Positions 3,561 to 53,546 of a stretch of DNA of 64,000 bases are shown here, one piece after another; position 1 is the stretch's first letter; each line of letters starts with the position of its first letter. This DNA is from an uncultured Gammaproteobacteria bacterium. Lineage in GTDB: Bacteria; Patescibacteriota; Patescibacteriia; Patescibacteriales; UBA12465. The notes beneath the pieces were generated by a model that was not told the origin of the DNA, searched no databases, and was given only the letters and a program-made list of their open reading frames with translations. The DNA lies in the NCBI GenBank assembly GCA_964470695.1, contig CAYYDR010000001.1, positions 465,997-529,996 of the forward strand, written 5' to 3'. The translations under genes and the position numbers were made by a program.

Positions 3561-3731
3561 TATTATATAACTAAATATTTACTAATAAATGAAATTTAAC
3601 CTATCGGCCCTTGTTTGATCAAATTTATTAAATAAATTTAGTAAGCTTTATTAACAAATATCATAATTTAAAAAATATAGCAAATAATTAATTAAAGATA
3701 GAAGGAAATTTTATAAACTAAAAGTAATTAT

Positions 3732-5544: not shown

Positions 5545-6141
5545 ATGACTCAATTAAAAAAAATATTATTTGTTATTAGTTTTTCCGGAATAAGTTTTCT
5601 GGCAGTCATTATTTTTTTCTCAAGTTTTAACTGGTTTGCCCTTTGTTCTCAAGCTAAATACGCTTTAGCCGCCGGCAGTCCAGTTAAAACTAAATTAGTA
5701 AAAATTGATCGTCTTCGCATCCCCGCTATTAATATTAATATCCCCCTAGAACAGGTGGGTTTAACGACTCAAGGAGCCGTAGATGTGCCACGTAGTCCTA
5801 TTAGCGCTGCTTGGTTTAATCTTGGACCGCGTCCCGGCGACAACGGCAGTGCTGTGGTTGTCGGGCATTATGGCCGCTGGAAAAATGGTTTGTCAGGGGC
5901 CTTTAATAATCTATCCAAGTTGCGTCAGGGCGATAAAATATATATTGAAAATGCCAAGGGATCAACCACTATTTTTGTGGTTCGCGAGCGTAAATCATAT
6001 GATCCCCAGGCTGATGCCTATGATGTTTTTAATTCCGATGATGATAAACCCCATCTTAATCTCATTACCTGCGAGGGGGCCTGGGACAAAGTTTCTAAAA
6101 GCTATTCTAAGAGATTAGTAATATTTGCTGATAAGCAATAA
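5545..6141 (+). CDS. sortase-family transpeptidase
   Basis: N-terminal TM anchor; HYGRW (catalytic His region); LITCEG (TLxTC Cys motif). Starts 7 nt after its LPNTG substrate gene. Confidence 0.8.
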   Translation: MTQLKKILFVISFSGISFLAVIIFFSSFNWFALCSQAKYALAAGSPVKTKLVKIDRLRIPAININIPLEQVGLTTQGAVDVPRSPISAAWFNLGPRPGDNGSAVVVGHYGRWKNGLSGAFNNLSKLRQGDKIYIENAKGSTTIFVVRERKSYDPQADAYDVFNSDDDKPHLNLITCEGAWDKVSKSYSKRLVIFADKQ

Positions 6142-8488: not shown

Positions 8489-10082
8489 CCGGTTAATCAG
8501 AATTGAGGAGATAACTTTAGGGTTAGATGATAAGGAGGGGGTCTTAAAATCTAAGATTTCTCAGATTTTAAATTTACCGGAGGAGGCGATTATCAGCTAT
8601 GAGGTCGTCAAAAAGAATATTGATTCCCGTCAGAAAAATATCCTTTTTGTTTATTCGGTTGATGTCAAAGTCAGCCAGCTTGAATTAATTAAAAAATGGG
8701 ATGTGCGTCATCGGGTTAGAGTCCATGAGCCTTTTATTTATGAAGAAAAAGTCTTAACTAAAAAAATAAATAAGAGCGTTGTAGTAGTCGGCAGCGGTCC
8801 CTGCGGTTTATTTGCCGCATTATTATTGGCTAAAGCCGGCCTTAAGCCCCTTGTTATAGAAAGAGGTAAAGATATGGATGCTAGAGTAAGGGATGTGGAT
8901 AATTTTTTTCAGGGTGGCGCTTTTAGTCCTCAATCAAATATTCAATTTGGCGAAGGCGGAGCGGGAACATTTTCTGATGGTAAATTATATACGCTTATTA
9001 ATGACCCGCGCTCCAAATATATATTTTCTGAACTAATTAAAGCGGGCGCTCCACTAGAAATAGCTTTTAGCGGTACTCCGCATATCGGTACTGACAAATT
9101 GCGCGGCGTTATTAAAAACATTCGTCAGGAGATTATTAAATTAGGCGGCCAGATAAGGTTTGAAACTTGTTTAACCGATTTAGAGATAAAAAATGGCAAA
9201 TTAGACGCCGTTATTCTAAATAATGAAGAAAAGATAAAAGTTGATGATTTAATTTTAGCTACCGGGCACTCCGCGCGCGATACTTACGAAATGCTTTATA
9301 AAAGGCAGCTAAAAATGTCGGCTAAGGCTTTTTCAATTGGGCTCAGGATTGAACATAAGGCCAGAATGATAAATATCGCCCAGTATAAAGATTCTTATAA
9401 TCACCCTAAATTAGGCGCGGCTAGATATAAATTAGTCCAGCATCTTGATGATAAGCGGCCGGTTTATAGCTTTTGCATGTGTCCGGGTGGTTATGTAATG
9501 GGGGCGGCCTCTGAAGAAGGTGGTGTTGTTACTAACGGTATGAGCGAATATGCTCAAGATGGTGATAATTCCAATAGCGCTTTATTGGTACCAGTTACTC
9601 CGGCTGATTTTGATTCCAATCATCCTTTAGCAGGGATAGAATTTCAGCGCCGTTGGGAGAGAGCTGCTTATTTAGCCGGCGGTAGTAATTATTTTGCCCC
9701 GGCGCAGCTAGTGGGCGACTTTTTGCAGAAACGGGCGTCTAATGAATTAAAAAGTATTATCCCGAGTTATAAGCCGGGGGTTAAAATGACTTCCTTAGAT
9801 ACCTGTTTGCCTAACTATGTCCTTGATAGTTTAAGAGAGGCTATCCTTAAATTAGATAAGAAAATCAAGGGATTTGCTAATCCCGGTGCTGTTTTAACAG
9901 GAGTAGAAACTAGGAGCTCAGCACCGGTCAGAATAGAGCGCAATGAGAAATATGAATCTAATATTTCTGGTATTTATCCGGCCGGAGAAGGGGCGGGACA
10001 TGCCGGAGGAATAGTTTCTTCCGCTATTGATGGATTAGCGGTGGGGGAGCTAATAATTGATAAATATATAAATGAAAATTAA
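8472..10082 (+). CDS. FAD-dependent protein (COG2509-type uncharacterised dehydrogenase)
   Basis: VVVGSGPCGLFAA dinucleotide-binding motif, LATGHSARDT, C-terminal YPAGEGAGHAGGI. Confidence 0.8.
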   Translation: MSLDVSRLIRIEEITLGLDDKEGVLKSKISQILNLPEEAIISYEVVKKNIDSRQKNILFVYSVDVKVSQLELIKKWDVRHRVRVHEPFIYEEKVLTKKINKSVVVVGSGPCGLFAALLLAKAGLKPLVIERGKDMDARVRDVDNFFQGGAFSPQSNIQFGEGGAGTFSDGKLYTLINDPRSKYIFSELIKAGAPLEIAFSGTPHIGTDKLRGVIKNIRQEIIKLGGQIRFETCLTDLEIKNGKLDAVILNNEEKIKVDDLILATGHSARDTYEMLYKRQLKMSAKAFSIGLRIEHKARMINIAQYKDSYNHPKLGAARYKLVQHLDDKRPVYSFCMCPGGYVMGAASEEGGVVTNGMSEYAQDGDNSNSALLVPVTPADFDSNHPLAGIEFQRRWERAAYLAGGSNYFAPAQLVGDFLQKRASNELKSIIPSYKPGVKMTSLDTCLPNYVLDSLREAILKLDKKIKGFANPGAVLTGVETRSSAPVRIERNEKYESNISGIYPAGEGAGHAGGIVSSAIDGLAVGELIIDKYINEN

Positions 10083-10094
10083 TATTATTAAACT

Positions 10095-11015
10095 ATGGAG
10101 GCTCAGACTAACCTGGTTATTTTATTCGGAATTATTATCGTGGGATTTTTAGTAGTAGACCTGGGATATTTAAATAGAAAAAATCATCGCGTTGAATTTA
10201 AATCAGCTCTCTATCAGTCTTTATTTTGGATAGCCATATCTTTGATATTTGGGTTGTTAATTTTTTTATTTTTAGATAAAGAATTGGCCGCCCAGTTTAT
10301 GAGTGCCTATGTTACCGAAAAGATGCTTTCGGTTGATAATCTATTTGTCATAATGTTGATTTTTAGTTTTTTTAAATTGGAAGAGAAATATCATCATAGA
10401 GTTTTGTTCTGGGGCATTATGGGTGCGATAGTTTTCCGGGCGGTGTTTATCGGCGCTGGAGCCTATATTATCCACCAGTTTTATTGGGTTTTGTATATTT
10501 TTGGGGCAGTCTTGCTTTATACTGGCGTTAAATTATTGCGCGATAAGAAAGAAGAGCATGTTGATTTTAATAATAATAAAGTTATTAAACTGGCCCGTAA
10601 GTTTTTGCCATTCACGGCCAATCATCATAATGGAAAATTTTTCATTAGGGAAAAAGGGAAATTTTATTTTACCTCTTTATTTTTAATAATGTTATTGGTA
10701 GAGGCGACCGATATAGTCTTTGCCGTGGACTCTATTCCGGCCGTATTTGCTATTTCGCAAGATTTATTTATTATTTTTACTTCTAATGTTTTTGCCATCA
10801 TGGGGTTGCGCGCTTTATTTTTTCTGATTGAAAGCATTTTGCATCGTTTCCATCATTTGCAGAAAGGCCTAGCTTTTATTCTGCTTTTTATCGGTTTAAA
10901 AATGCTTTCCGGAATATTCGGCTGGCACATATCTTCTTTTGCTTCGTTCGGGATAATTATTTTTGCTCTCGCTTCGTCAATAATTTTGTCAGTTATGTTT
11001 CCTAAAAAAATTTAA
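10095..11015 (+). CDS. TerC-family integral membrane protein
   Basis: Multi-TM; EKMLSVDNLFV and VEATDIVFAVDSIPAVFAI are duplicated TerC signatures. Confidence 0.85.
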   Translation: MEAQTNLVILFGIIIVGFLVVDLGYLNRKNHRVEFKSALYQSLFWIAISLIFGLLIFLFLDKELAAQFMSAYVTEKMLSVDNLFVIMLIFSFFKLEEKYHHRVLFWGIMGAIVFRAVFIGAGAYIIHQFYWVLYIFGAVLLYTGVKLLRDKKEEHVDFNNNKVIKLARKFLPFTANHHNGKFFIREKGKFYFTSLFLIMLLVEATDIVFAVDSIPAVFAISQDLFIIFTSNVFAIMGLRALFFLIESILHRFHHLQKGLAFILLFIGLKMLSGIFGWHISSFASFGIIIFALASSIILSVMFPKKI

Positions 11016-11025
11016 TATTATTAAT

Positions 11026-11475
11026 ATGTTCTACAAAAAAATTTATAATTTTGGCGACAAGTTAGAAGATAAGGTGCGAGTCCGGCTCAGTCATTACCCG
11101 ATTATTTATGCTTTTTTGGGCGGTACTGGCATAATTATTTTTTGGCGAGGCGTCTGGCACACCGTGGATTTCCTCATGGAATTATTATTTGCGGTTGATG
11201 AGAGCGTGTTAAGCACTAGCGCGCCGCAACTGCCCTGGTGGGACGGACCTTTATCAATTTTAGTCGGATCAATACTATTATTAATGACTGGCCTGTTCGT
11301 TACTAGTTTTATCGGCAATGAAATTATTATTTCCGGCTTGAGAAAGGAGAAGAAAATAGTGGAAAAGACTGAGGAAGAAATTCGCGCTGAATTAAAGGAA
11401 AATATGAAAATAAAGAGCGAAACGCATGAGATTGAAGGTCGTTTAAAAAGAATTGAGGATATTTTGAACAAATAA
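11026..11475 (+). CDS. hypothetical 2-TM membrane protein with charged C-terminal helix
   Basis: 149-aa ORF with two hydrophobic segments and a KE-rich tail. The antisense ORFs here are low-complexity mirror frames. Confidence 0.5.
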   Translation: MFYKKIYNFGDKLEDKVRVRLSHYPIIYAFLGGTGIIIFWRGVWHTVDFLMELLFAVDESVLSTSAPQLPWWDGPLSILVGSILLLMTGLFVTSFIGNEIIISGLRKEKKIVEKTEEEIRAELKENMKIKSETHEIEGRLKRIEDILNK

Positions 11476-19783: not shown

Positions 19784-21949
19784 ATGAAAAACAAGCTCAT
19801 CTTGATGGCAATTATATTAGTTGCCTCTGGCACCTTGTTATTATCGCGAGGAGTCCAAGCTGCAACGCCAGTTTTGTCCTTATCAACCACTAATGACGGC
19901 GATTATGTTAAATTGGATGTAGCTAACGGAGATGCTGACTCCAGTATTTTGCTATATTATCATAAGAGTAGCGGCGGCTTGCAAGTTAGATATTTAGGGA
20001 AGACCAATGCTAGCGGCAATTACTCAACTAATATAAGTACTTCCGATTATGATGTTATTACTAATGATTCTGTTTATGTGGCCGTTAATAACAAGCAATC
20101 TTCTTTAGTTAGTTGGCCCCTAGTTGCTTCTAGCGGTGGAGCCTTGACCCTTAATAAGACTGGTTTAGTTTTTTCGGTCGGCCAATCCGAAACGCTGACA
20201 GTTGGAAATGTCGGGACTAATATTTTGTACTTACTAAATAATTCTAACCCACAGATTGCTAATGTTAATATCTCTGGCAGCCAGGTAACTGTAAAAGCTA
20301 ATACTTATGGGCAAACAGTAGTAACGGTGTGTGCACTAGGAACGACTTCAAATTGCGCTAGCACCTATGTGACAGTCCAGAATTCGGGCGCTAAAACGCT
20401 TACTTTCAGCCAGAGCAACTTAACCATCGCCGCTGGACAAAGTTCCCAGATCACTATTTTAAATAGTAGTGGAAGCTATACTATTTTAAATAATTCCAAT
20501 CCTAGTATTATTCAGGCCAGTATAAAAGATGCGGTTATAACTTTAACTGCTAGTAATAACAGTGGTACCGCCGCTTTAACCGTCTGTCAGTCTGATATGA
20601 GTGGTTGCGGCATTATTAATGCTAGTTCTGGTAGCGTGAGCTCGTCTACTTTAGTTTTTAACCAAACCGCCCCCTTACTTACGACCGGCCAGACTTTAAA
20701 CGTCGCTATTTCAGGTGGCGGTAGCAACTATAATATCTCATCAAATTCTAATTCCAACGTCCTATCAGCTAGTATTAATGGCACTAATTTGGTTTTAATA
20801 GGGAACAGCGCTGGGTCTTCTACGGTCACTGTTTGTTCCTCAAGCGGTAATTGCAATTCTTTAAGCGCTACGGTTAGTTACGCGACCAGCGGCCCCATTA
20901 CTTTAAGCCAGACTAGCTTATGGCTGCAGGTTGGACAAGCGGTGAGCGTTACTATTTCTGGCGGCACTATGCCTTATAGTATTTTACCTGATACAAATTC
21001 TAATAGTATTTTTTCTAGTAATTTAAATAATAATATTTTGACTCTAACTGGTTTAGCGGCGGGGTCATCTTCGCTTAGCGTCTGCTCGGCCGCCGGTGCC
21101 TGCACTAATTTATCAGTTTTAGTTAATGGCGTTAGCTCTAGTAGTCAATTAACTTTTAGTAATAATAATCTATCTTTGAATGTTGGCGCTGATGCTAATA
21201 TTTCTTTGTTTGGTAATGGTGGATACTATGTTTCTACTAGTAATAACCTTAATGTTGCTTCTATAACCGTCACTGGTTCCCAGGCCAAGGTCTCTGCTTT
21301 AAGCCCTGGCAGCGCTAATGCTACCATTTGCCAGACCGGCGGTCAGTGCAGCGTTTTATATGTAGTAGTGGCTTCCAATGCTTCCACGGTTTCTACCCCG
21401 ACTTTTAGCCAGGTTAATCCGACAATTTCTGTCGGCCAGAGTTCAACTATAACTATTACGGGAGGAACTGGTACTAGTTATAGCCTTTCGTCAAATTCTA
21501 ATCCAACCATAGTCCAAGCTAATGTTAATGGCAGCAGCTTAGTATTACTAGGAAAGAGCCAAGGGAGCGCAGTTTTATCAGTTTGCGCCGCTTCTAATAG
21601 CTGTAATTCTTTAGCGGTTACTGTTAACGCGGTTAGCGCTTCAACTGGTGGCTCATCGGTAACCGGTAATACCGGAAATAGTAATGCTGGCAACTCCGCA
21701 AATACGGGCGCTACTAATAAACCGGTTAAACCAAAATATAAGTTTACACGTTATTTGACAGTAGGCTCTAAGGGGGCGGATGTTACCGCCCTGCAGACTC
21801 GCTTGAAGTATGAAGGAGTCTATTCCGGCCCAATAACCGGTACTTTTGGAGCTCAGACTTATGAGGCGGTTAAAGCTTATCAGAAAAAGAATAAATTGCA
21901 GACTCTGGGCGTAGTCGGGCCAGGAACCAGAGCTTTGCTTAATAAGTAA
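19784..21949 (+). CDS. secreted protein with six Big_2-like Ig repeats and a C-terminal peptidoglycan-binding domain
   Basis: Signal peptide; six units of about 80 aa, each ending in a Cys-x5-6-Cys pair. The C-terminus (GADVTALQTRLKYEGVYSGPITGTFGAQTYEAVKAYQ) is PG_binding_1-like. Confidence 0.75.
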   Translation: MKNKLILMAIILVASGTLLLSRGVQAATPVLSLSTTNDGDYVKLDVANGDADSSILLYYHKSSGGLQVRYLGKTNASGNYSTNISTSDYDVITNDSVYVAVNNKQSSLVSWPLVASSGGALTLNKTGLVFSVGQSETLTVGNVGTNILYLLNNSNPQIANVNISGSQVTVKANTYGQTVVTVCALGTTSNCASTYVTVQNSGAKTLTFSQSNLTIAAGQSSQITILNSSGSYTILNNSNPSIIQASIKDAVITLTASNNSGTAALTVCQSDMSGCGIINASSGSVSSSTLVFNQTAPLLTTGQTLNVAISGGGSNYNISSNSNSNVLSASINGTNLVLIGNSAGSSTVTVCSSSGNCNSLSATVSYATSGPITLSQTSLWLQVGQAVSVTISGGTMPYSILPDTNSNSIFSSNLNNNILTLTGLAAGSSSLSVCSAAGACTNLSVLVNGVSSSSQLTFSNNNLSLNVGADANISLFGNGGYYVSTSNNLNVASITVTGSQAKVSALSPGSANATICQTGGQCSVLYVVVASNASTVSTPTFSQVNPTISVGQSSTITITGGTGTSYSLSSNSNPTIVQANVNGSSLVLLGKSQGSAVLSVCAASNSCNSLAVTVNAVSASTGGSSVTGNTGNSNAGNSANTGATNKPVKPKYKFTRYLTVGSKGADVTALQTRLKYEGVYSGPITGTFGAQTYEAVKAYQKKNKLQTLGVVGPGTRALLNK
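20140..21650 (+). repeat. six divergent tandem coding repeats of about 240 nt (Big_2-like units)
   Basis: Recurrent pattern L(T/V)FSQ..L.(I/L)..GQS..(I/V)T(I/V)...SNSNP.I.(Q/S)A...G..(L/V)......G.(A/S).(L/V)(T/S)VC....C in the translation. Confidence 0.6.
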
Positions 21950-21969: not shown

Positions 21970-22686
21970 ATGGAAAACAATAATAAGTCTATTGCTTATG
22001 GCGTAATCCTCGGCTTGAGTTTGATTATTGCCTCAGCGATAGTAGCTCGGACTTTTCTAGATGTTAAAAAATTAGATAATGTGTTGACCGTGTCCGGTTC
22101 AGCCAAGCAAAAAGTAACGGCTGATTCGGCTCGCTGGACTGCTAATTTTTCTCGTTCTGTTTTTAAGGATCAGCTTAAAGATGGTTATGCTAGCATGAAG
22201 AACGATGAAAAAGTAGTTAATGCTTTTTTTGTGGAAAAGGGTTTTAAGGATATTGAAATCTCACCGGTTTTCATGAATGAAATTTGGAAGAATGACCAGA
22301 ATGCGCCTAAGGAATATAATTTAGTCCAGAATGTTCAGATAAAATCTGATGATGTTTTAAAGATGAAGGAAATAGCTAAGAGCAGCGACCAGTTAGCAGC
22401 GAAGGGAATAATATTCTCCGCTAATCCGGTTGAATATTATTACTCTAAATTACCTGAGTTAAGAGTTTCCTTATTACCAGAGGCAATTAAAGATGCTAAA
22501 AATAGAGCTCAAGCCATTGCCGAAAGTAGTGATCGGGGCGTGGACGCGATTAAATCTGTCTCTATGGGCGTGGTACAAGTAATGCCAGTCGGTTCAATTG
22601 ATGTTTCTGATTATGGCTCTTATGATACCTCTAGTATTGATAAGGAAGTTATGATTACCGTTAAGACTGTTTTCGGCTTGAAGTAA
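21970..22686 (+). CDS. SIMPL-domain (DUF541) protein, membrane-anchored
   Basis: N-terminal TM anchor; overall pattern similar to 32167..32904, with AIKDAKNRAQAIAESS as the SIMPL helix. Confidence 0.75.
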   Translation: MENNNKSIAYGVILGLSLIIASAIVARTFLDVKKLDNVLTVSGSAKQKVTADSARWTANFSRSVFKDQLKDGYASMKNDEKVVNAFFVEKGFKDIEISPVFMNEIWKNDQNAPKEYNLVQNVQIKSDDVLKMKEIAKSSDQLAAKGIIFSANPVEYYYSKLPELRVSLLPEAIKDAKNRAQAIAESSDRGVDAIKSVSMGVVQVMPVGSIDVSDYGSYDTSSIDKEVMITVKTVFGLK

Positions 22687-32166: not shown

Positions 32167-32904
32167 ATGAAAAAAAGTTATGTCTGGCTAGCTACTCTAG
32201 GAATATTAGCGGTAGCGGCTGTAGTCATCGTGGCTTTAGTGATGGCTAATAAAACCAAAAATGAAGATAGGTTTTCGGTTACCGGCTCCGGCACTGTCTA
32301 TGCCAAGGCCGATATCGCTAATTTAGAAGTGGGTTTAAAGACTGGCGCTAAGAAAACCGCCGCTGAAGCGACTAAAGAAAGCACGGCCAAAATGGATGAA
32401 ATTATCCAAGAAATAAAGAAACTAAATATTGATGAAAAGGATATTAAAACCTCCGGCTATAATTTAACCCCAGTTTATAATTGGACCGATAAAACCGGCC
32501 AGCAATTAATCGGTTATGAAGTCTCACAGAATTTAACTCTAAAAATTAGAGACTTAAATAAGATTGGCGATGTTATTGCTAAAACCACCGAAAAGGGCGC
32601 TAACCAAATTGGCAATATCAGTTTTACTATTGATGATGAATATGCTTTGAAGAATCAGGCTAGGGAATTAGCTATTCAAAAGGCTAAAGAGAAGGCGGCC
32701 CTGATTGCTGAGCAGTCTGGCATGAAATTAGGCGAAGTTAAGAGCGTTTATGAAAGTTCTGAGCCATTTGTAAGCCCTATGGCCTATTCTAACGCCAAAT
32801 TAGATATGGGGACTGGACGCATGGAAGTTTTGACTAGCCCTAATATACAGACCGGGCAGAACGAAATTAAAGTTGAAGTAACTTTGATGTACGAGGTAAA
32901 ATAG
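32167..32904 (+). CDS. SIMPL-domain (DUF541) protein, membrane-anchored
   Basis: GYEVSQNLTLKIRDLNKIGDVI and ARELAIQKAKEKAALIAEQSG are typical SIMPL segments. Confidence 0.85.
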   Translation: MKKSYVWLATLGILAVAAVVIVALVMANKTKNEDRFSVTGSGTVYAKADIANLEVGLKTGAKKTAAEATKESTAKMDEIIQEIKKLNIDEKDIKTSGYNLTPVYNWTDKTGQQLIGYEVSQNLTLKIRDLNKIGDVIAKTTEKGANQIGNISFTIDDEYALKNQARELAIQKAKEKAALIAEQSGMKLGEVKSVYESSEPFVSPMAYSNAKLDMGTGRMEVLTSPNIQTGQNEIKVEVTLMYEVK

Positions 32905-32984: not shown

Positions 32985-33470
32985 TCAAGCTATCTTTTGC
33001 AAGAGATAGCTCGGTAAATGGGCGAACCCGTTAATGAGCTCCCTGACCCCCTCCTTTGAGAAGTCAGAATAACCAGCATCCTGGCTAGTAATTCCGACTA
33101 CTCTGCTGAGTCTAGAGACTCTTCCCAGAAATTCCGGTTCGTCGCTAATAAAGACGGTATTATTTTCTTTGAAATTATCTACTTTGAAGGTTATCTTATC
33201 AAAATCTTTTCCGCCGACTAGGGTCTGGTCAAAGTTCAAGGAAATAAAAGCTATTTCCTTGTTTGAAAATTCGCTAAATGGCTTTTTGCTTATCAGGACG
33301 ATCTTATGCCCCTCTTTCCTGAGCTTGTGAAGCACTTCTCCTAATATTGGAGACACATTTTTTTCCGATACATGCTCGGTATTATATGAGAACCCCGGTT
33401 CGCTCGTCAGAGCCTTTTCTACATCGGCAGATATCTGTTCGACATAGAATACGAACAATGTTTTTTCCAT
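32985..33470 (-). CDS. hypothetical protein (possibly HAD-like fold lacking the nucleophile motif)
   Basis: 161-aa ORF with a weak SD (AAGGAAAT). KIVLISKKP and VFISDEP resemble HAD motifs II and IV, but no DxD motif is present. Confidence 0.45.
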   Translation of the reverse strand: MEKTLFVFYVEQISADVEKALTSEPGFSYNTEHVSEKNVSPILGEVLHKLRKEGHKIVLISKKPFSEFSNKEIAFISLNFDQTLVGGKDFDKITFKVDNFKENNTVFISDEPEFLGRVSRLSRVVGITSQDAGYSDFSKEGVRELINGFAHLPSYLLQKIA

Positions 33471-44572: not shown

Positions 44573-45844
44573 TTATTGAATCTTGAAAGAAATACTGTAA
44601 GTTAGTTTTGAGCTTTCACCGTCTACCTTAATATCAACAGCTTTAGCTGCCTTTTCAGGCACTACTAAGCTTTGATTAAAGCGGCCGCGAGAATCAGTTT
44701 TAGTCTTGGTTTTAGTGCCGGTGAAATCAATCGTCAAGTCTTCGTTAGGGAAGTAGCCGCCGCCATTTAAAATTATGGTGGCATTAGGCGCTCCAGTAGT
44801 GTGGTCTAATCTTAAGAAAAGATTTTCAGTACTAGTTTCTTCCGCCTCTTCAGTCGCTTCAAAAGAAGCTACTTTATTTAAAGTATCATTTAATACTAAA
44901 ATATTGGAATTATTAAAGATAACCACCTTATCACCATTATTAGACACGACTTTTAAGCCCATCGCCCAGCCACGCGCGCCGCCCAGGCTAGTAGACCAAC
45001 GATAATCAGTATCGCGCATGGTTTGTTTGTCTAATTTAACAACGCCAGCGCCGTTAGAAAAATAGATATAATTATTATCTCCAGAAGCGGCCATATCATA
45101 GCCGTCATAGTCAAGGTGCTTAAAGCTGCCTAACAGTCTTCCGTCTAAACTAAACTTCTTGGCATAATAGTCATCAATAACAAAGAGGTCGCCATTTTCA
45201 TCTTGATAAGCCTGACGATTGCCAACTTTATTTTTATAATTAAGCGCGATGTTAGCTACTTTGGTATTAGTGTTTCTATCAAAAACATTTAAATAGCCGT
45301 CTTGGACATTTAAAATATACTGATCGTTATAAGCACGAATATTATAAGGAGTATCGTAGTTAGCGATGTCATAAGAAACAATTACCTGTAAATCAGCGTT
45401 CCAGACTTTAACGCTCTTTTGGCTGATAGTAACAATGTTATCGCCGAATTTATCTACTCGGTTATACCATTCCCAATAAGTATTTTTATTGCTTGATATT
45501 AGAGACAACTGATTGTCGCCAGTTAACTCATACTTATATAAAGTATAGTCGCCAATCGCGTAAATAATTAGGCGTCCGTTTTCTACCGATAATTTTGAAT
45601 CATAAAAATTACCGTTTTTATTAAAACGAGCGTCAAAGGGGCGGACCTTTACCAGCCTCTTTAATTCAGTTCCTTCTAACTTAAATACCTCTAAACTATC
45701 AGAGTTGGTAGAGCTGATATATAAGTTATTATTAAAACTAACGGCATCGCCTGAATAGTAAGATTTTAACTTACTTTGGCCGTTATTTGTAACAAATAAA
45801 ACAGCGATTAGGCAGATGGCAAATAATAAAGCAAACCTTTTCAT
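44573..45844 (-). CDS. secreted beta-propeller-like protein with C-terminal Ig-like domain
   Basis: Signal peptide; repeated beta-strand-rich segments of about 45 aa; no catalytic motif recognised. Confidence 0.55.
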   Translation of the reverse strand: MKRFALLFAICLIAVLFVTNNGQSKLKSYYSGDAVSFNNNLYISSTNSDSLEVFKLEGTELKRLVKVRPFDARFNKNGNFYDSKLSVENGRLIIYAIGDYTLYKYELTGDNQLSLISSNKNTYWEWYNRVDKFGDNIVTISQKSVKVWNADLQVIVSYDIANYDTPYNIRAYNDQYILNVQDGYLNVFDRNTNTKVANIALNYKNKVGNRQAYQDENGDLFVIDDYYAKKFSLDGRLLGSFKHLDYDGYDMAASGDNNYIYFSNGAGVVKLDKQTMRDTDYRWSTSLGGARGWAMGLKVVSNNGDKVVIFNNSNILVLNDTLNKVASFEATEEAEETSTENLFLRLDHTTGAPNATIILNGGGYFPNEDLTIDFTGTKTKTKTDSRGRFNQSLVVPEKAAKAVDIKVDGESSKLTYSISFKIQ

Positions 45845-45977: not shown

Positions 45978-46006
45978 TTGACAAATAAAATTATTTGTAG
46001 TACAAT
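45978..46006 (+). promoter_or_regulatory. promoter (TTGACA-17-TACAAT) of the Wzz-like gene
   Basis: TTGACA at 45978-45983 and TACAAT at 46001-46006. Confidence 0.55.
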
Positions 46007-46041: not shown

Positions 46042-46815
46042 ATGGAGTTTAAGGAATTCATCCAAGTATTAAAAAGAAAGAAGGCGACTGTATTTACTAT
46101 AATCTTAATTTTGATTATATTAGTCGGGGGAATATCATTAATTAGTCCTCTTAAATATGGAGCAAAGTCGCGTCTTTTAGTTATCCAAAATACTACCGGC
46201 AATGATCCATATACTATTTCTAAATCTAACGAATATCTAGGAAATCTTTTTGCCCAGGTGGCTTATTCTGGTTCTTTTTATAATTTAGTTTTAGATTCTA
46301 AATATGATATAGATAAGAATTATTTTTCTGGTAGCTATAATGAGCAGATTAAATCTTGGGGACAGACTATCCAGACTAAGACTTTAAGCGATACCGGCAT
46401 TATTGAAATTAATGTTTACCACCCTAATCCTTATCAGGCCCAGCAGATTGCTTTAGCCGTTAACGATGTTTTAATTAGTAAGAATTCTAATTATCAAGGT
46501 AATGGCGAGGGAATAAAAGTTAATATTATTGATCAGCCCCTAGTCTCAACTTATCCGGTTAAACCTAACTTACTGCAGAATGGAATTTTAGCCCTAGTGT
46601 TTGGCATTATGTTTTCTCTATTTTATATCTACCTTTTTCCAGAGGAATCATATGATTTGAAGTTATGGCCGTCTAGAAAATCTAAACAAGTTAGAAATAT
46701 TGGGCACGCTGTTAAATTAGATTATTATCCGGTAGATAACCAGCCCATAGACGTTCCAATTAGTGAACAGGAAGAATTCAGACCACAGGGGAATATTCAG
46801 AATATCCTTAAATAA
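46042..46815 (+). CDS. Wzz/chain-length-determinant-like protein
   Basis: N-terminal FKEFIQVLKRKK plus TM segment, a second TM near residue 190, and a periplasmic-type middle domain. Confidence 0.6.
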   Translation: MEFKEFIQVLKRKKATVFTIILILIILVGGISLISPLKYGAKSRLLVIQNTTGNDPYTISKSNEYLGNLFAQVAYSGSFYNLVLDSKYDIDKNYFSGSYNEQIKSWGQTIQTKTLSDTGIIEINVYHPNPYQAQQIALAVNDVLISKNSNYQGNGEGIKVNIIDQPLVSTYPVKPNLLQNGILALVFGIMFSLFYIYLFPEESYDLKLWPSRKSKQVRNIGHAVKLDYYPVDNQPIDVPISEQEEFRPQGNIQNILK

Positions 46816-46880
46816 GTAATTAGTTTAATTAAAATAAATTAAAGTAACTTAACAAACAGCCCCCAAGGAGGTGGCTCATA

Positions 46881-47747
46881 ATGAGAAAGATAACAACCAT
46901 GATGATGTTGCTGCTGTTTTTGGCAGTCATCCCTCTCCTGGGGCAGGGCGAAGGTCGCGCTTTTCAGGAGAAGATAAATCTCTCCATTTTTGGCGGTATT
47001 TGGTCTAAACAGACCAATACCAATAATAATGGGTGGAATATCGGCGCGTACGCAGATTATTTACCTTATAAATCTAGCAATGGTCGCTGGACAGGTGGAA
47101 TTTATTCTGTCTATAACCATTCAAATTTTAAGGACAATCTATCCAAATATGATGCCAAAATTGAAGAATATGGTTTAGGATTAACCGGGGGTTATTACTA
47201 TGAAGGATTTTCCACCCGGAAATTCTTATTCCTAGGTTTCAGTCTCGGCTGGAAGCACGCCCAAGATAAGGGCTCTAGCCAGAACAGATGGGGTAAGTAT
47301 GAAGCCACTGATGAGGTGGAATTGATAACAAGTAATATCAACTTCAATCTTATTAGTAGGTTTGATGTTTTGCTCCCTAGGACTCAAATCCTAATTTCTC
47401 TGCAGGCCCCGTTGTCTTCTAATAAGAAGGCCTATTGGGAGGGCAAAGAAATAACCAGCGAAAGTTGGGATAGGACGTATGGGGAAGTTTTGCTTAAGCA
47501 AAGCATAATTAATTTAGGACTTAATACTAATTTATATCTTAGTCCAAAGTTAATTGCTGCCTTTGCATACAGTAAGGGCGACAATAGTCGTTCTTATAGT
47601 ATCGGCGTTGACCTTTCATTGCACAAGCAGTATAAGGATGACTTTTTGTCCGTATATTGTTTGTATAAGATAGGAAAAGATGTTGATGCCAACAGTATTT
47701 TCTTTGGGCTGAATTTTAGCCCGATGTCGTTGATTTTCGGTAATTAA
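46881..47747 (+). CDS. secreted protein with outer-membrane-beta-barrel-like sequence pattern
   Basis: Strong SD (AAGGAGGTG) and signal peptide. There are 10 or more amphipathic alternating strands (YGLGLTGGYYYEGF, FLFLGFSLGWKH, SYSIGVDLSLHK, SIFFGLNFSP). Confidence 0.5.
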   Translation: MRKITTMMMLLLFLAVIPLLGQGEGRAFQEKINLSIFGGIWSKQTNTNNNGWNIGAYADYLPYKSSNGRWTGGIYSVYNHSNFKDNLSKYDAKIEEYGLGLTGGYYYEGFSTRKFLFLGFSLGWKHAQDKGSSQNRWGKYEATDEVELITSNINFNLISRFDVLLPRTQILISLQAPLSSNKKAYWEGKEITSESWDRTYGEVLLKQSIINLGLNTNLYLSPKLIAAFAYSKGDNSRSYSIGVDLSLHKQYKDDFLSVYCLYKIGKDVDANSIFFGLNFSPMSLIFGN

Positions 47748-47802
47748 ACAAATAATAGTAGTATAAAACAAACCAAAAACTAATCGTAGGGAGTAACAAA
47801 TC

Positions 47803-48585
47803 ATGGAAAAGAACCAAAACGATCTGGAAAACCAGGAAATTTTAGACAAAAAGACACCAGTTCAGGAGTCCGAAAACAAGTCAAAAGCCTGGATGTACAT
47901 TCTGGGCGCGATTGCATTAATCCTTCTGTTTATTTTTATCTTCAAGCCTTTCGCAGGTAACAAAACAACAGAAGAAAATACAGCGGCTGAAGCTACTCAA
48001 ACATCTACTCAACAAGAAGTGGGTGAATTGAAAGACAAGCTCGCTCAGCTAGAAACACAGCTTAACAATGCGAATGACAAAGATGCAATCATCGCCAGCA
48101 AGGATGAAACCATAAAAGCTCTCGCTAAACGTTGTGTAACCGTTACAGTAAAAACACAGGAGCCGGTTAAGCCAAAAGAAAACACGGAAGTTAATGTTAG
48201 AAGTGTTATGCCAGTTAACCAGGTTGACTTATCAGCTTCGGTATCAAGAGTTATTAATAATACTGCAGTGGTTGATAAGAAAGAAGAATACAAAAAATTC
48301 TGCGTTAGAGTCGGCGGCGAATTTTGGCCACATTTAGCGATAAATGACGGCGAAACATTTACAGACGCAGTGGACAATGGTCTTGGAGGATTTGATATAA
48401 TCCTTAAAGATAGATGTCAGTCTATATCCGGTGACTATGGCTTAACATATGATAATGTTTTATTTGTCAAAGCCTCTAAGTTGAAAAAGTTCGGGGATAG
48501 TCCTGACGCAATAGGTCCAATCACATTTGGATCATTCAAAAGAATGACTTTACAAGGAGACTACTACATCTACAAACAAAAGTAG
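47803..48585 (+). CDS. hypothetical membrane-anchored protein with coiled-coil segment
   Basis: SD GGGAG; one TM segment (WMYILGAIALILLFIFIF); ELKDKLAQLETQLNNAN coiled coil. Confidence 0.5.
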   Translation: MEKNQNDLENQEILDKKTPVQESENKSKAWMYILGAIALILLFIFIFKPFAGNKTTEENTAAEATQTSTQQEVGELKDKLAQLETQLNNANDKDAIIASKDETIKALAKRCVTVTVKTQEPVKPKENTEVNVRSVMPVNQVDLSASVSRVINNTAVVDKKEEYKKFCVRVGGEFWPHLAINDGETFTDAVDNGLGGFDIILKDRCQSISGDYGLTYDNVLFVKASKLKKFGDSPDAIGPITFGSFKRMTLQGDYYIYKQK

Positions 48586-48628
48586 AGTTCTCCAATAGAT
48601 TCATAAAGCTTTCTAAATTTTGGAAGCG

Positions 48629-48664
48629 AAACCCTCAAATGCATTTGCAAATGAGGGTTTTTTA
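48629..48664 (+). terminator. intrinsic terminator after 47803..48585
   Basis: AAACCCTCA-loop-TGAGGGTTTTTTAT. Confidence 0.75.
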
Positions 48665-48732
48665 TTTGTCTTATTCAAGCGCAAAACCCCACTTAAATTA
48701 CTTATAGATAATAAAAAGATGTTGATAAAATG

Positions 48733-48766
48733 AAAAAGCCGCGAACTTAAAGTTGCGGCCTTTTTT
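48733..48766. terminator. terminator serving minus-strand gene 48792..49958
   Basis: AAAAAGCCGC(G)AACT-TAA-AGTTGCGGCCTTTTTT, with one bulge. Confidence 0.6.
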
Positions 48767-48791
48767 GTTATCAAATATATTTCTAATCTTC

Positions 48792-49958
48792 TTAATTTGT
48801 TTTTTTCCCCAAAACAGGGACTACTTTAACTTTGAGATATTGGAACGCGTTATCCCAGTAACTGCTTGCTGACATATTAGGGGAATAGGTGGTGGGGCTA
48901 GAGATATTGGGTCCAAATTGAAATACTAATAGATCGGAAATTGGGAATTGGGTAAAATTTATTTTTATTTTTCCCCAATTTGGAAAACCATTAACTGCGG
49001 TTTCTGCCAGTGGTTCCCGCCAAGTGCCGTTAGCATTTTGTAATCTTACAAATCCGCTAGTGAAAGCACTAGCGTGTCTAGTGTAAACTGTTACGCTAGA
49101 GCTATCTACGTCTATTCTTACAACCGCGTTTACTCCTTCATCACCCATACTTCCTGGCGCATTTGCCGTAGTAATACCAGTGACATTGCCAGAGGAGGTA
49201 AGAGTGAATTTATTATCTTTGTAATTTCCCCAAAAGGAACCCCAAATTAAATTCCCATTAGAGGAGGCTATCTTTCCGACTGGTAATTGATAATCACCAG
49301 GCGATAGAGTTACTCTTATAACTACAAATTTGCCAATATCCCCGGCATTGGCTGGCACAACCGCACCATTAACATAATTACTGTTTGTATCTGCTGGGGC
49401 AATTGTTTTAACTGTCCAAGTTGGGCTAGTTACACTGCCGGAATATCCATAGGCACTGCCGTTAATTCCCAGTAAACCCTTTTTATGAGCAATAAATACT
49501 AGATTATAGAGATTACTAGCGCCGGTTGACGTGCAAGAAGCAAGAGCAAAGCCAGGTAGACCATCAAGGGAATTTACTATTTTTACAAATACGGACGTAG
49601 AGTGAGATTGGCCTTTATCGTCAATTCCCACTAGAGTTACTAGGGTTATTGCGCCGGGATCTAGGCTGTGCCAAAATTCTACTGAGGCATTGGATGATTT
49701 GAAGTTATTTTCTTGAAATGTCCATTGCCAGGTTACGATATTTATCCCATTTTTGGCAATAGCGTTGTAGTTAGTCCTCAAATACTTTTCCGTTTGAACA
49801 GTATCTGAACCACTACTTGTTTTATACAGGGTGCTAACCTGTATCTGAATTTTTCCGTCAGTGACAGGGGTGTCATCCGGTTCTACCAAGATTTTTTCTT
49901 GGCAACCGAAGAATATTATTACAGAAAATAGGATGAAAAACATTTTTAATGTTTTCAT
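48792..49958 (-). CDS. lipoprotein with PKD-like domain
   Basis: SD AAGGAG; lipobox IIFFGC; WQWTF...GAITLVTLVGIDDKGQSHSTSVFVKIV resembles a PKD domain. Confidence 0.55.
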   Translation of the reverse strand: MKTLKMFFILFSVIIFFGCQEKILVEPDDTPVTDGKIQIQVSTLYKTSSGSDTVQTEKYLRTNYNAIAKNGINIVTWQWTFQENNFKSSNASVEFWHSLDPGAITLVTLVGIDDKGQSHSTSVFVKIVNSLDGLPGFALASCTSTGASNLYNLVFIAHKKGLLGINGSAYGYSGSVTSPTWTVKTIAPADTNSNYVNGAVVPANAGDIGKFVVIRVTLSPGDYQLPVGKIASSNGNLIWGSFWGNYKDNKFTLTSSGNVTGITTANAPGSMGDEGVNAVVRIDVDSSSVTVYTRHASAFTSGFVRLQNANGTWREPLAETAVNGFPNWGKIKINFTQFPISDLLVFQFGPNISSPTTYSPNMSASSYWDNAFQYLKVKVVPVLGKKTN

Positions 49959-50047
49959 GATTTTTTTACTCCTTGGTTTGGTTTATATGAAATATATTGA
50001 CTATATTTGTTTTAAAAAGGACTCTAAAAACTAGCGTTGGTACGCTT

Positions 50048-51151
50048 TTATTTCAATTTTAACAATTGATTTTGGTATACTTCTAAAACTTTCTTGGCAA
50101 CAATGGGCCAGGTAAATTCTTGAGCCACTCTTTCATAGGCTAGCTCAGCCTTGCTAGCGACTAAGCTGTCATTAGTTAGAAGTTCCTCTAACTTTACTTT
50201 TAGATCGGATATGTCTTGGCTTTTAAAAGAAAAGCCGGTATTTCTAATAGCCTCTAAATTGGCGCAGATGTCACTAACTAAGCAAGCTTTTTTATGAGCC
50301 ATTGCCTCAAGCAGGGAAATTGACAAGCCTTCCATTTCTGATGGTTGAACAAACAGGTAAGTATTAGCATATAACTGATCTAAAACTTGGCCACTTTGGT
50401 TGCCAGTAAATATAATTCTATCGTCGCCAGCCGCTAGCTTTTCTAGTTCAGCTAAATATTCACCAGAACCAGTTACAACTAATTTCTTGTCAGTTTTTAA
50501 TTGTTTGAAGGCGGGAATTAGGTATTGTAACCCCTTAAGTTTAATAATTCTAGAAACACTTAAAATATAATTATTAGGGCTTAAACCCCAGGCTCTTATC
50601 TTGTCATCGCCCTCTTTATTGTATAGATTTGCCCCATTAGGGATTAAAATTGGTCGTCTTTGATATTTATTTTGTATATAATCTTGCATGGCTCCAGTCA
50701 GAACTATAACTTCGTCAGCATAGCGGCACATTAGCCTTTCTCCTAACTGCAGCATCAATTTTGCAAAACCACTCCATTTTTGGTTATAGTAATCAAAGCT
50801 ATGCAGGGTGGCAACTATTTTTAAATTAGGGTTAAGCAACTTTGGTAACCAGCAGAGCAGGGACGGACCTATGCCCTGGAAATGGACTATGTCTACTTTT
50901 CTATTGGTAACATCAAGGCTTGATAATAGTGTATGAGTTATGTTGGCTAAGTTTTTATTATTAATAAAAGGTTTATTAATAATTTTAATATTTTTGAATT
51001 CTTCTAGTTTTTCTGGCAAGTAATTATTACGGTTATATACTAAAACTTCCTGGCCAGAAGAGACCAGGTTTATTGCTAAACTTTCCACATATCTTTCTAC
51101 GCCGCCGTTCTGGGCGGGTATTCCTTTTTGTCCAATAAAGGCAATTTTCAT
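50048..51151 (-). CDS. GT4-family glycosyltransferase
   Basis: KGIPAQNGGVERYVE and PSEMEGLSISLLEAMAH (EX7E). Confidence 0.9.
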   Translation of the reverse strand: MKIAFIGQKGIPAQNGGVERYVESLAINLVSSGQEVLVYNRNNYLPEKLEEFKNIKIINKPFINNKNLANITHTLLSSLDVTNRKVDIVHFQGIGPSLLCWLPKLLNPNLKIVATLHSFDYYNQKWSGFAKLMLQLGERLMCRYADEVIVLTGAMQDYIQNKYQRRPILIPNGANLYNKEGDDKIRAWGLSPNNYILSVSRIIKLKGLQYLIPAFKQLKTDKKLVVTGSGEYLAELEKLAAGDDRIIFTGNQSGQVLDQLYANTYLFVQPSEMEGLSISLLEAMAHKKACLVSDICANLEAIRNTGFSFKSQDISDLKVKLEELLTNDSLVASKAELAYERVAQEFTWPIVAKKVLEVYQNQLLKLK

Positions 51152-52349: not shown

Positions 52350-53546
52350 ATGGCTAATGTTTTGGGAATAAATTTAAATGATTTACCAGCCGCCTCGGCC
52401 AAGAAAAAGGCGGCGGAATTTTTAAATAGCACCACTCAACATTATATAGTAACTCCTAATCCGGAAATTATTTTAAATTCTCATAAAGATGAGGAGTTAT
52501 TCTATATTCTCAATAAAGCTGATTTATCTATTGCTGATGGTTTTGGCTTAAAGTTAGCTGGCTGGCTGGCTGGGATTAATATTCCTAGGCTGGCGGGGGC
52601 TGATTTAACCCTACATCTTCTATCTTTAGCTCAAATAGAGCATAAACGAGTAGTAATTCTTAATTGGCGCGGCGGATTATCAAACAAAGTAGACATCCGT
52701 AGAGCCTTGAAGGAAAAATATCCAAGCCTGGATTGTTTGGTAATTGATTCTAGCCGCTCGCAACCCTTAAGTTCAAAAATTATTGATCAGATAAATAATT
52801 TTAAGCCCTTAATTTTATTTAATACCTTTGGCTCACCCTATCAGGAGAAAATTATTTATCACAATTTACGGAAAATGCCATCAGTGAGAGTAGCGCTCGG
52901 CGTTGGCGGGGCCTTTGATTTTATTACTAAAAAAGCTAAACGGGCCCCCTTGATTTTTAGGCAAGTTGGCTTAGAATGGCTTTGGCGCTTAATAAAACAG
53001 CCTAAGCGCTGGAAAAGGATTTACAATGCCACTTGGGTTTTCACCGGGAAATTATTACGTAATAGATGGAATCATTTTTTTTACCGGCCTTGCGTAGCTT
53101 GTTTTTTGTATAAAATTGAACAAGGCCAAAAAAAAATTTTAATAGTAGAGAGAGATGACGAGGCCGGACATTGGCAAATACCACAAGGAGGCACGGATGG
53201 AGAAAACCTGGAAACAGCTGGTGCCAGAGAGCTAAGGGGAGAGTTAAATACCAATAAGTTTACCACTAAGGCTACTTTTAAAAATACTTACAGCTATCTT
53301 TTCCCGCCGGTTAGTGATCAACGTTATTTAAGCCTCTCCCGCCGCTTTAGGTATGATTATAAGGGGCAGAGACAGGGTTTATACATTGCAGAGTTTATTG
53401 GTGAGAATAATGATATTAAAGTTAACTTCTGGGATCACCGGGCCTGGCGCTGGGTTGATGATAATAATTTCGTGGCCAGCGTTCATCCTGTCCGCCAAGA
53501 TAGTGCCAGAATATTTTTAGAAAAATTTCGGTCGCTTAAATTATAA
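52350..53546 (+). CDS. fusion protein: WecG/TagA/CpsF (GT26) glycosyltransferase plus C-terminal Nudix domain
   Basis: N-terminal 240 aa: TPNPEI, ADG, GVGGAFDF, EWLWRL. C-terminal region: PQGGTDGENLETAGARELRGELN, a Nudix box with RELRGE in place of REUxEE. Confidence 0.8.
   Translation: MANVLGINLNDLPAASAKKKAAEFLNSTTQHYIVTPNPEIILNSHKDEELFYILNKADLSIADGFGLKLAGWLAGINIPRLAGADLTLHLLSLAQIEHKRVVILNWRGGLSNKVDIRRALKEKYPSLDCLVIDSSRSQPLSSKIIDQINNFKPLILFNTFGSPYQEKIIYHNLRKMPSVRVALGVGGAFDFITKKAKRAPLIFRQVGLEWLWRLIKQPKRWKRIYNATWVFTGKLLRNRWNHFFYRPCVACFLYKIEQGQKKILIVERDDEAGHWQIPQGGTDGENLETAGARELRGELNTNKFTTKATFKNTYSYLFPPVSDQRYLSLSRRFRYDYKGQRQGLYIAEFIGENNDIKVNFWDHRAWRWVDDNNFVASVHPVRQDSARIFLEKFRSLKL

Follow-up and report, generated by a model that had tools for sequence, protein, structure and literature searches.

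Polysaccharide export through beta-barrels has been described for the OPX/beta-barrel translocons, such as EpsY/EpsX and WzaX/WzpX of Myxococcus xanthus, whose barrels are 16-18-stranded, resemble PgaA and AlgE and are described only for Gram-negative bacteria (PMC9601211, PMC9603273). How a polysaccharide leaves a walled cell without an outer membrane is still unknown (PMC9603273). Other barrel systems that invite comparison are the type Va autotransporter beta-domains, the sugar channels KdgM/NanC, CymA and OmpG, and the wall tethers OmpA and OmpM/SlpA of diderm Terrabacteria; according to the literature, OmpM, SLH and CsaB were lost in the clade that unites Chloroflexi with the candidate phyla radiation (CPR). 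Here we analyze three open reading frames (ORFs), A, B and C, in a 64,000-nucleotide stretch of contig CAYYDR010000001.1 (positions 465,997 to 529,996; hereafter the window). They are located between a gene for a Wzz-like polysaccharide co-polymerase (PCP) and a GT4 glycosyltransferase gene, where a preliminary description made from the sequence alone had placed them. On balance, A-B-C is probably an envelope module, ancestral and vertically kept yet quick to evolve, that belongs to a Wzy/Wzz-type surface-polysaccharide locus in Candidatus Falkowbacteria (Patescibacteria); its location, its partners and a role in polysaccharide export or anchoring are what we infer.

Protein A and its conservation beside the Wzz-like gene

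The comparison of loci was anchored on the Wzz-like neighbor, and a scan of species-representative genomes yielded 46 loci titled Candidatus Falkowbacteria or Patescibacteria. A hidden Markov model (HMM) search of their ORFs found, immediately downstream of the Wzz-like gene, a member of the A family in 43 of the 46 species-level loci and detected C in about 24, in some of them beyond the GT4 gene, and jackhmmer found B directly after A in about 40. The preliminary description had proposed a horizontally acquired foreign island and had itself named a conserved position across the lineage as the observation that would speak against it. This is what we observed, and A and B recur regularly where an island would show patchy presence in sister genomes; the island interpretation is thereby refuted. 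The syntenic order comprises DUF4012, GHL15, Wzy_C, two GT4 genes, a 423-aa secreted protein, the Wzz-like gene and A, followed by B, C, GT4, CorA, WecG-NUDIX, GltX, M23 and XerC, and it is complete in relatives whose A proteins are 29-43% identical. The module also occurs in the complete chromosome CP066698.1, and in an independent Logan assembly the Wzz-A-B-C junctions are identical (100%); together these two results exclude a chimeric assembly. The name given to C homologues is 'Patescibacteria group bacterium'.

Many third-party annotation (TPA) metagenome-assembled genomes titled 'uncultured Gammaproteobacteria bacterium' hold the fully syntenic Falkowbacteria-type locus (L013, L016, L019, L022, L026, L029, L032, L033, L035-L037, L039, L041-L043, L047), and these labels look like placeholders or misassignments. 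Besides the usual copy, one locus (L048) has a second A-family barrel gene (3568-4419, E = 1e-23), which lies upstream of the Wzz-like gene at a distance of about 6 kb.

Protein A begins with a Sec signal peptide (approximately residues 1-22), followed by a predicted barrel (approximately residues 30-280). AlphaFold2 modeled it as a meander of 12 long antiparallel strands (pLDDT 80.4, pTM 0.77), and a Foldseek search of this model against PDB returned 12-stranded autotransporter beta-domains as the best matches (best E = 5e-10, TM-score about 0.55). All of the top 15 matches are autotransporter barrel domains (Hbp, AIDA-I, EspP, BrkA, NalP, AaaA, EstA; E 5e-10 to 1e-6, TM-score 0.46-0.58), with FadL, OpcA, CymA and OmpG next; 209 PDB matches reach E <= 1e-3, and among the matches listed all are membrane barrels. 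The first reading of A, as a secreted 288-aa protein made of amphipathic strands like those of an outer-membrane barrel, thus agrees with the structure prediction and its Foldseek matches.

At the sequence level, an exhaustive profile search at E <= 1e-3 gathered 82 cluster representatives of the A family, mostly 270-300 aa long. Comparison of 61 members with Pfam gave nothing above threshold; sub-threshold matches to Autotransporter, OMP_b-brl or PagL occur in eight of them, and the autotransporter model PF03797 matches six (best E = 4.7e-4) and scores 15.2 bits for A, against a cut-off of 26. The A-family profile found 0 matches among PDB sequences. By these comparisons A founds an undescribed lineage-wide family without a Pfam model.

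Across the 61 members, nearly every strand has one face that is 0.8-1.0 hydrophobic over 4-6 alternate positions and another at 0-0.3. The hydrophobic face is variable (entropy 2.52) and consists of L/I/F/V/Y/A/W, with 27% L. Conservation is higher on the interleaved face (entropy 2.10), which is rich in G/S/N and accounts for 25 of the 38 positions conserved most. As read from the alignment, such a pattern marks a membrane barrel and is the opposite of that in a soluble barrel, where the hydrophobic core is conserved. Signal-peptide-like N-termini are found in 50 of the 61 members, an aromatic residue within the last six positions in 44, and a terminal F, Y or W in 24; the window copy ends in ...SLIFGN. 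Model and alignment together describe A as a predicted outer-membrane-type beta-barrel.

The same data bear on whether A is instead a secreted, non-membrane beta-rich protein, either a wall-associated barrel that binds glycan or lipid or an open sheet closed by AlphaFold, so that its likeness to outer-membrane proteins (OMPs) would be topological only. The shallow alignment of 4 sequences used for the prediction, the failure of one of the five models (pLDDT 43), the moderate Foldseek TM-scores (0.5-0.58), the lack of any OMP-family sequence match that reaches threshold, and a phylum that by the literature has no known outer membrane or BAM all lend this some weight. However, a variable hydrophobic face combined with a conserved G/S/N/charged face is the opposite of what a soluble barrel has, the composition of the hydrophobic face is that of lipid-facing residues, the listed structural matches are all membrane barrels, and many members keep C-terminal aromatic residues. 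We consider a non-membrane A unlikely.

The tail of the profile search contains longer proteins (417-584 aa) with an N-terminal LysM domain, a linker and a C-terminal barrel (P0090, P0091, P0094/P0100, P0097, P0098), whose barrel parts match the A-family profile at E ~1e-24; the A of the window is without a fused peptidoglycan-binding domain. Members near the detection limit (L058, L055, L056) have a Wzz-like gene beside them in homologous loci. The LysM fusions of L055 (10001-11584) and L056 (10001-11254) are one or two genes away from the Wzz-like homologue, in loci that contain Wzy_C, GT4 and DUF1972-GT4 genes and, in L056, also DUF4012. L055 shares the window order rplJ-rplL-...-Wzz-...-GT4; its L10 is 65% identical to that of the window, its Wzz is 44% identical, and five further genes reach 33-46%. 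Locus homology alone suggests that the carriers of the fusions are Patescibacteria. Because the fusions stand beside Wzz-like genes in homologous loci, the association of barrel and Wzz appears to be older than Falkowbacteria, with the barrel physically coupled to a peptidoglycan-binding domain in some lineages. In L056, a separate 208-aa LysM protein (9357-9983) adjoins the fusion gene.

Composition, divergence and origin of the module

The deviant composition suspected earlier was found in codons and tetranucleotides but not in GC content. GC of the A-B-C stretch is 0.39-0.40, equal to the window mean (z < 0.5), whereas the pooled Karlin codon bias (B) of the three genes is 0.318 against 0.176 +/- 0.048 over every set of three consecutive genes (rank 2 of 45, z ~3), and the tetranucleotide distance of the module has a z of +2.8, in the top 1.3% of windows. 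Among the codons that had been listed as enriched, ACA makes up 34% of Thr codons in the module versus 9% and CCA 45% of Pro codons versus 22%, AAC (29% versus 20%) and CTG (14% versus 9%) are slightly up, and CAG is not raised (44% versus 53%). TTA accounts for 26% of Leu codons in the module versus 44%. Housekeeping genes make almost no use of ACA and GCA (8% of Thr and 8% of Ala codons); taken individually, A, B and C use ACA for 23-63% of Thr and GCA for 23-32% of Ala, and most relatives show this contrast too. High expression was rejected as the cause, as rplJ has no ACA or GCA preference, and so was a general composition of secreted proteins, as other secreted proteins of the window have no such bias.

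Two other genes of the window stand out in the same statistics. A 721-aa PG_binding_1 protein lies in the 3.2-kb segment (start 20001) with the highest tetranucleotide deviation, although no other gene has a more typical codon usage (B = 0.164). At the other extreme, codon usage deviates most (B = 0.574, GC3 0.47) in a 161-aa ORF on the minus strand (32985-33470), which has no Pfam match and is located between a SIMPL/DUF541 gene and rplJ.

The codon and tetranucleotide deviations, together with a barrel fold typical of diderms, would favor an island recently acquired from a diderm donor and integrated between the Wzz-like gene and the GT4 gene. Orthologous modules in relatives, however, have a codon bias that exceeds the control mean in 28 of 28 loci and exceeds it by more than 2 standard deviations in 23, with ACA higher in 26 and TTA lower in 25. 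A deviation common to all 28 modules is therefore a property of the module and not the signature of a donor. The position shared by 43 of the 46 genomes, the normal GC, the absence of tRNA, flanking repeats or mobility genes, the Patescibacteria-type polysaccharide locus around every A member with examined context, and the lack of a significant sequence match of A to any diderm OMP family argue in the same direction, and we judge recent acquisition from a diderm highly improbable. The flanking repeats seen were AT-rich and at chance level, no mobility genes were found at the module, and a XerC-like recombinase gene close by keeps its syntenic place in all relatives. In this surface-glycan locus, unusual codon usage is thus no evidence of recent transfer.

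Divergence within the module is pronounced. A has a mean pairwise identity of 28%, whereas Wzz reaches 51% and the 423-aa neighbor 50%, and in some loci A is 11-17% identical although Wzz is 62-69% identical, a pattern of cassette-like replacement. The divergence of A correlates with that of Wzz at a Spearman coefficient of 0.44, against 0.67 between Wzz and the 423-aa neighbor. A variable surface-antigen cassette, often swapped between Falkowbacteria through recombination in the conserved flanks, in the manner of O-antigen and capsule loci, would explain the codon usage, and it agrees with a codon deviation common to 28 loci, with the weak A/Wzz correlation, with the very different A alleles of outlier loci and with a C that varies in position and presence. 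Yet no donor pool of matching codon usage was identified, and fast divergence alone could yield the same identity pattern. Such exchange is a possibility that we take seriously without thinking it probable; it concerns evolutionary dynamics rather than function and is compatible with the ancestral envelope module that we favor.

Proteins B and C, expression signals and neighboring genes

Protein B starts with a short cytoplasmic tail and a transmembrane (TM) helix (approximately residues 29-50), after which come a coiled coil, a spacer of low complexity and a beta-rich C-terminal domain; this agrees with the TM-anchored coiled-coil protein seen in the preliminary description. Alignment of 29 sequences revealed that the S/T/P/K-rich spacer varies in length and that some members have a lipobox instead of the TM helix. 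The C-terminal domain of about 110 aa is conserved (FCVR..WPH..N..GYNW..GDYG.T.DG.FFV..W..G.YY). Profile searches of B against Pfam and PDB gave weak, non-significant matches to the TM/coiled-coil N-terminal half only, and on this basis the C-terminal domain is novel and without a sequence relative. The architecture fits a stalk that would present this domain away from the cytoplasmic membrane. In one sublineage a short B paralogue, with anchor and C-terminal domain and without the coiled coil (139-196 aa), is located between Wzz and A (L022-L025, L028, L031, L033, L040, L042, L049, L051), and in L002 it follows A (10880-11299).

Protein C carries the lipobox FFGC after its signal peptide, and the lipid-attachment Cys19 is kept in at least 90% of 14 homologues. 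Its AlphaFold2 model (pLDDT 79.3) is all-beta with three beta-sandwich domains, the N-terminal one PKD/Ig-like; Foldseek matched the model only to generic tandem Ig/FN3-like arrays, and Pfam PKD_4/PKD match 4 of the 14 homologues. Judged by these features, C is a lipoprotein with PKD/Ig-like domains, as the convergent gene had been read before. Also as foreseen, no enzymatic Pfam domain is present in A, B or C, nor in their 61, 29 and 14 respective homologues.

The features of the module and its edges are collected in Table 1. The Shine-Dalgarno sites claimed for all three genes can be read directly from the sequence, and the convergent gap between B and C, 206 nt long, holds the two strong hairpin terminators that had been pointed out there. 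The second of them (dG -15.8 kcal/mol on the plus and -15.7 kcal/mol on the minus strand; z -4.1 and -5.5) serves the minus-strand gene C and is a second stop for the plus-strand unit. A terminator scan found none between 46271 and 48628, so that the Wzz-like gene, A and B are not separated by one; from the promoter to 48628 the one site seen is weak and lies inside the Wzz ORF. Given this lack of terminators and the strong promoter-like site before Wzz, A and B appear to be distal genes of one transcript and not an insertion that interrupts the locus, as had been supposed; Wzz-A-B is probably a single transcript, likely starting at the promoter at 45978-46006.

Table 1. Positions in the window of the three ORFs, their expression signals and the adjoining genes.
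Feature	Position	Strand	Remarks
Secreted 423-aa protein	44573..45844	-	Divergent from Wzz-like gene; conserved, 58-61% identity in related loci
Sigma-70-like promoter TTGACA-17-TACAAT	45978..46006	+	11/12 consensus matches, upstream of Wzz-like gene; consensus scan, putative function
Wzz-like polysaccharide co-polymerase, 257 aa, two TM segments	46042..46815	+	Sub-threshold Pfam Wzz and GNVR matches
Shine-Dalgarno of gene A, AAGGAGGTG	46865..46873	+	7 nt ahead of start codon; sequence reading
Gene A	46881..47747	+	288 aa ORF
Shine-Dalgarno of gene B, GGGAG	47789..47793	+	9 nt ahead of start codon; sequence reading
Gene B	47803..48585	+	260 aa ORF
Intrinsic terminator of Wzz-A-B unit	48628..48661	+	10-bp G+C-containing stem, then T-run; dG -17.2 kcal/mol, z -4.4; inverted repeat I12
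Bidirectional intrinsic terminator GCCGCG...GCGGC between A-run and T-run	48738..48759	both	Terminator scan
Gene C	48792..49958	-	388 aa ORF
Shine-Dalgarno of gene C, AAGGAG	49969..49974	-	10 nt ahead of ATG; sequence reading
GT4 glycosyltransferase, DUF1972-type N-terminus	50048..51151	-	Pfam Glycos_transf_1 / Glyco_transf_4; other module edge; syntenic in all related loci

The Wzz-like protein shows 57-74% identity between Falkowbacteria loci, and Pfam places Wzy_C and GT4 genes in the same locus as the Wzz-like gene and A. The secreted 423-aa protein has no significant Pfam match, with a beta-propeller far below threshold (16.9 bits versus a cut-off of 140). Elsewhere in the window, a sortase gene (5545-6141) directly follows the gene of a 601-aa surface protein whose C-terminus consists of LPNTG, a hydrophobic stretch and KKRVR, and the 721-aa protein (19784-21949) has T2SS-T3SS_pil_N-like repeats and a C-terminal PG_binding_1 domain; the sortase/LPXTG and peptidoglycan-binding surroundings described earlier are thus present. 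The sole POTRA match in the 64-kb window is of the FtsQ type.

Several further features of the window were recorded. The segment 3732-6141 encodes the 601-aa surface protein, which has an ice-binding-like domain and DUF7507, together with its own sortase. The gene at 52350-53546 joins a WecG/TagA-family glycosyltransferase with a NUDIX domain at the C-terminus, a fusion kept in every related locus examined, and two paralogous SIMPL/DUF541 proteins (21970-22686, 32167-32904) are encoded less than 10 kb apart. No tRNA genes and no Rfam families (gathering threshold) were found in the 64-kb window, despite the presence of rplJ-rplL, where an L10 leader might be expected.

Proposed envelope role and comparison with known systems

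If A-B-C is an envelope module, A would be exported by Sec, fold into an OMP-type barrel of about 12 strands with a hydrophobic belt about five alternating residues deep, and reside beyond the peptidoglycan, in a hydrophobic layer or assembly. B, which would be anchored in the cytoplasmic membrane or lipidated there, would project its C-terminal domain outward on the coiled coil and S/T/P/K-rich stalk and hold A in place, a task that the fused LysM domain would perform in sister lineages. The polymer on which the Wzz-like co-polymerase acts could then find in A its distal conduit or its point of attachment, with C as a variable accessory binder.

Several points weigh against this proposal. Patescibacteria are treated as monoderm in the literature, with outer-membrane markers lost and no outer membrane known, which strengthens the earlier remark that a barrel is unexpected in this type of cell. 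The lumen of a 12-stranded barrel is narrow for a polysaccharide chain, the proteins encoded at 30139-56306 include no Pfam match to Poly_export (PF02563) or OPX, and no flippase was seen in the locus by Pfam. The outward placement of the hydrophobic face of A is deduced from conservation patterns, not coordinates, and the model itself came from the shallow alignment mentioned above. C, which is absent or escapes detection in roughly half of the loci, may not be a core part. The shared codon deviation may stem from the tRNA set, motif avoidance or cassette exchange.

Taken one step further, the envelope module would imply that Falkowbacteria and related Patescibacteria are not simple monoderms, and that they kept or re-invented a lipid-containing outer layer with an OMP-like barrel, tethered by LysM or B and coupled to a Wzz-type machine. 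We regard this as doubtful. If true, the module would be a relic of the ancestral diderm Terrabacteria envelope or would point to a BAM-independent route of beta-barrel insertion, and it would offer, for the first time outside classical Gram-negatives, a candidate conduit that takes polysaccharide across the wall.

No outer membrane of its own is needed by a cell that releases A into the membrane of a host bacterium to serve there as a pore or an adhesin. On this view the module is ancestral but host-directed, with B and C as attachment factors and an incidental linkage to polysaccharide genes. This would agree with the epibiotic life widely inferred for Patescibacteria in the literature, with the much faster evolution of A, B and C than of their neighbors (A 28% versus Wzz 51% identity), and with cassette-like replacement, which is expected of molecules at a host interface. 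On the other side stand the tight Wzz-A-B order over large distances with its probable co-transcription, the anchoring of B in the producer's own membrane, and the LysM domain of distant homologues, by which the barrel would be bound to peptidoglycan, in the simplest case that of the cell itself. A host-directed function seems to us quite improbable.

An unrecognized outer hydrophobic layer, OMP-like barrels working without one, and barrels aimed at host membranes are three readings that each bear on the diderm-to-monoderm transition and on the way episymbionts build their surface. The barrel family is lineage-wide, under selection and tied to a Wzz-like gene, which contrasts with accounts of lost outer-membrane markers in CPR bacteria. 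Read as the ancestral envelope module that we favor, A-B-C is a concrete candidate for polysaccharide exit from a walled cell without an outer membrane.

Among known systems, autotransporter beta-domains (Hbp 3AEH, AIDA-I 4MEE, EspP 2QOM, BrkA 3QQ2, NalP 1UYN; PF03797) share the 12-strand meander of the A model and a length of about 250-280 residues. A differs from them in having no passenger domain or pore-filling linker helix, its mature form being about 265 aa with the barrel about 8 residues past the signal peptide, and in its context, which is polysaccharide biosynthesis and not virulence-factor secretion, in a phylum without a known outer membrane. We rejected the identification of A as an autotransporter on the missing passenger domain and on the PF03797 score below cut-off.

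The sugar channels KdgM/NanC, CymA and OmpG (12-14 strands) are similar to A in size and let oligosaccharides through as monomeric barrels. In the Foldseek search with A, CymA and OmpG take ranks 21 and 39, and KdgM/NanC are not among the matches listed; all are uptake porins of a true outer membrane and have no sequence relationship to A. The tethers OmpA and OmpM/SlpA offer a different likeness, as the LysM-linker-barrel order of the distant A homologues follows the logic of the SLH-coiled coil-barrel order of OmpM, and Falkowbacteria encode a separate coiled-coil stalk, B, beside the barrel. The wall-binding domain is LysM, however, and not SLH or OmpA_C, and the A of the window has none.

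With the OPX/beta-barrel translocons the locus shares a barrel gene next to a PCP gene in a Wzx/Wzy-type locus, and the putative use of the barrel as a distal export element with envelope-spanning partners. In contrast to their barrels, A has about 12 strands, and PgaA (4Y25) ranks only 24th in the Foldseek search, with a TM-score of 0.32; the window locus has no Poly_export/OPX protein, and B and C have no counterpart in the translocons. Although strand number and the lack of OPX set it apart, the module would, by analogy, work most like the PCP-linked beta-barrel translocons of diderms.

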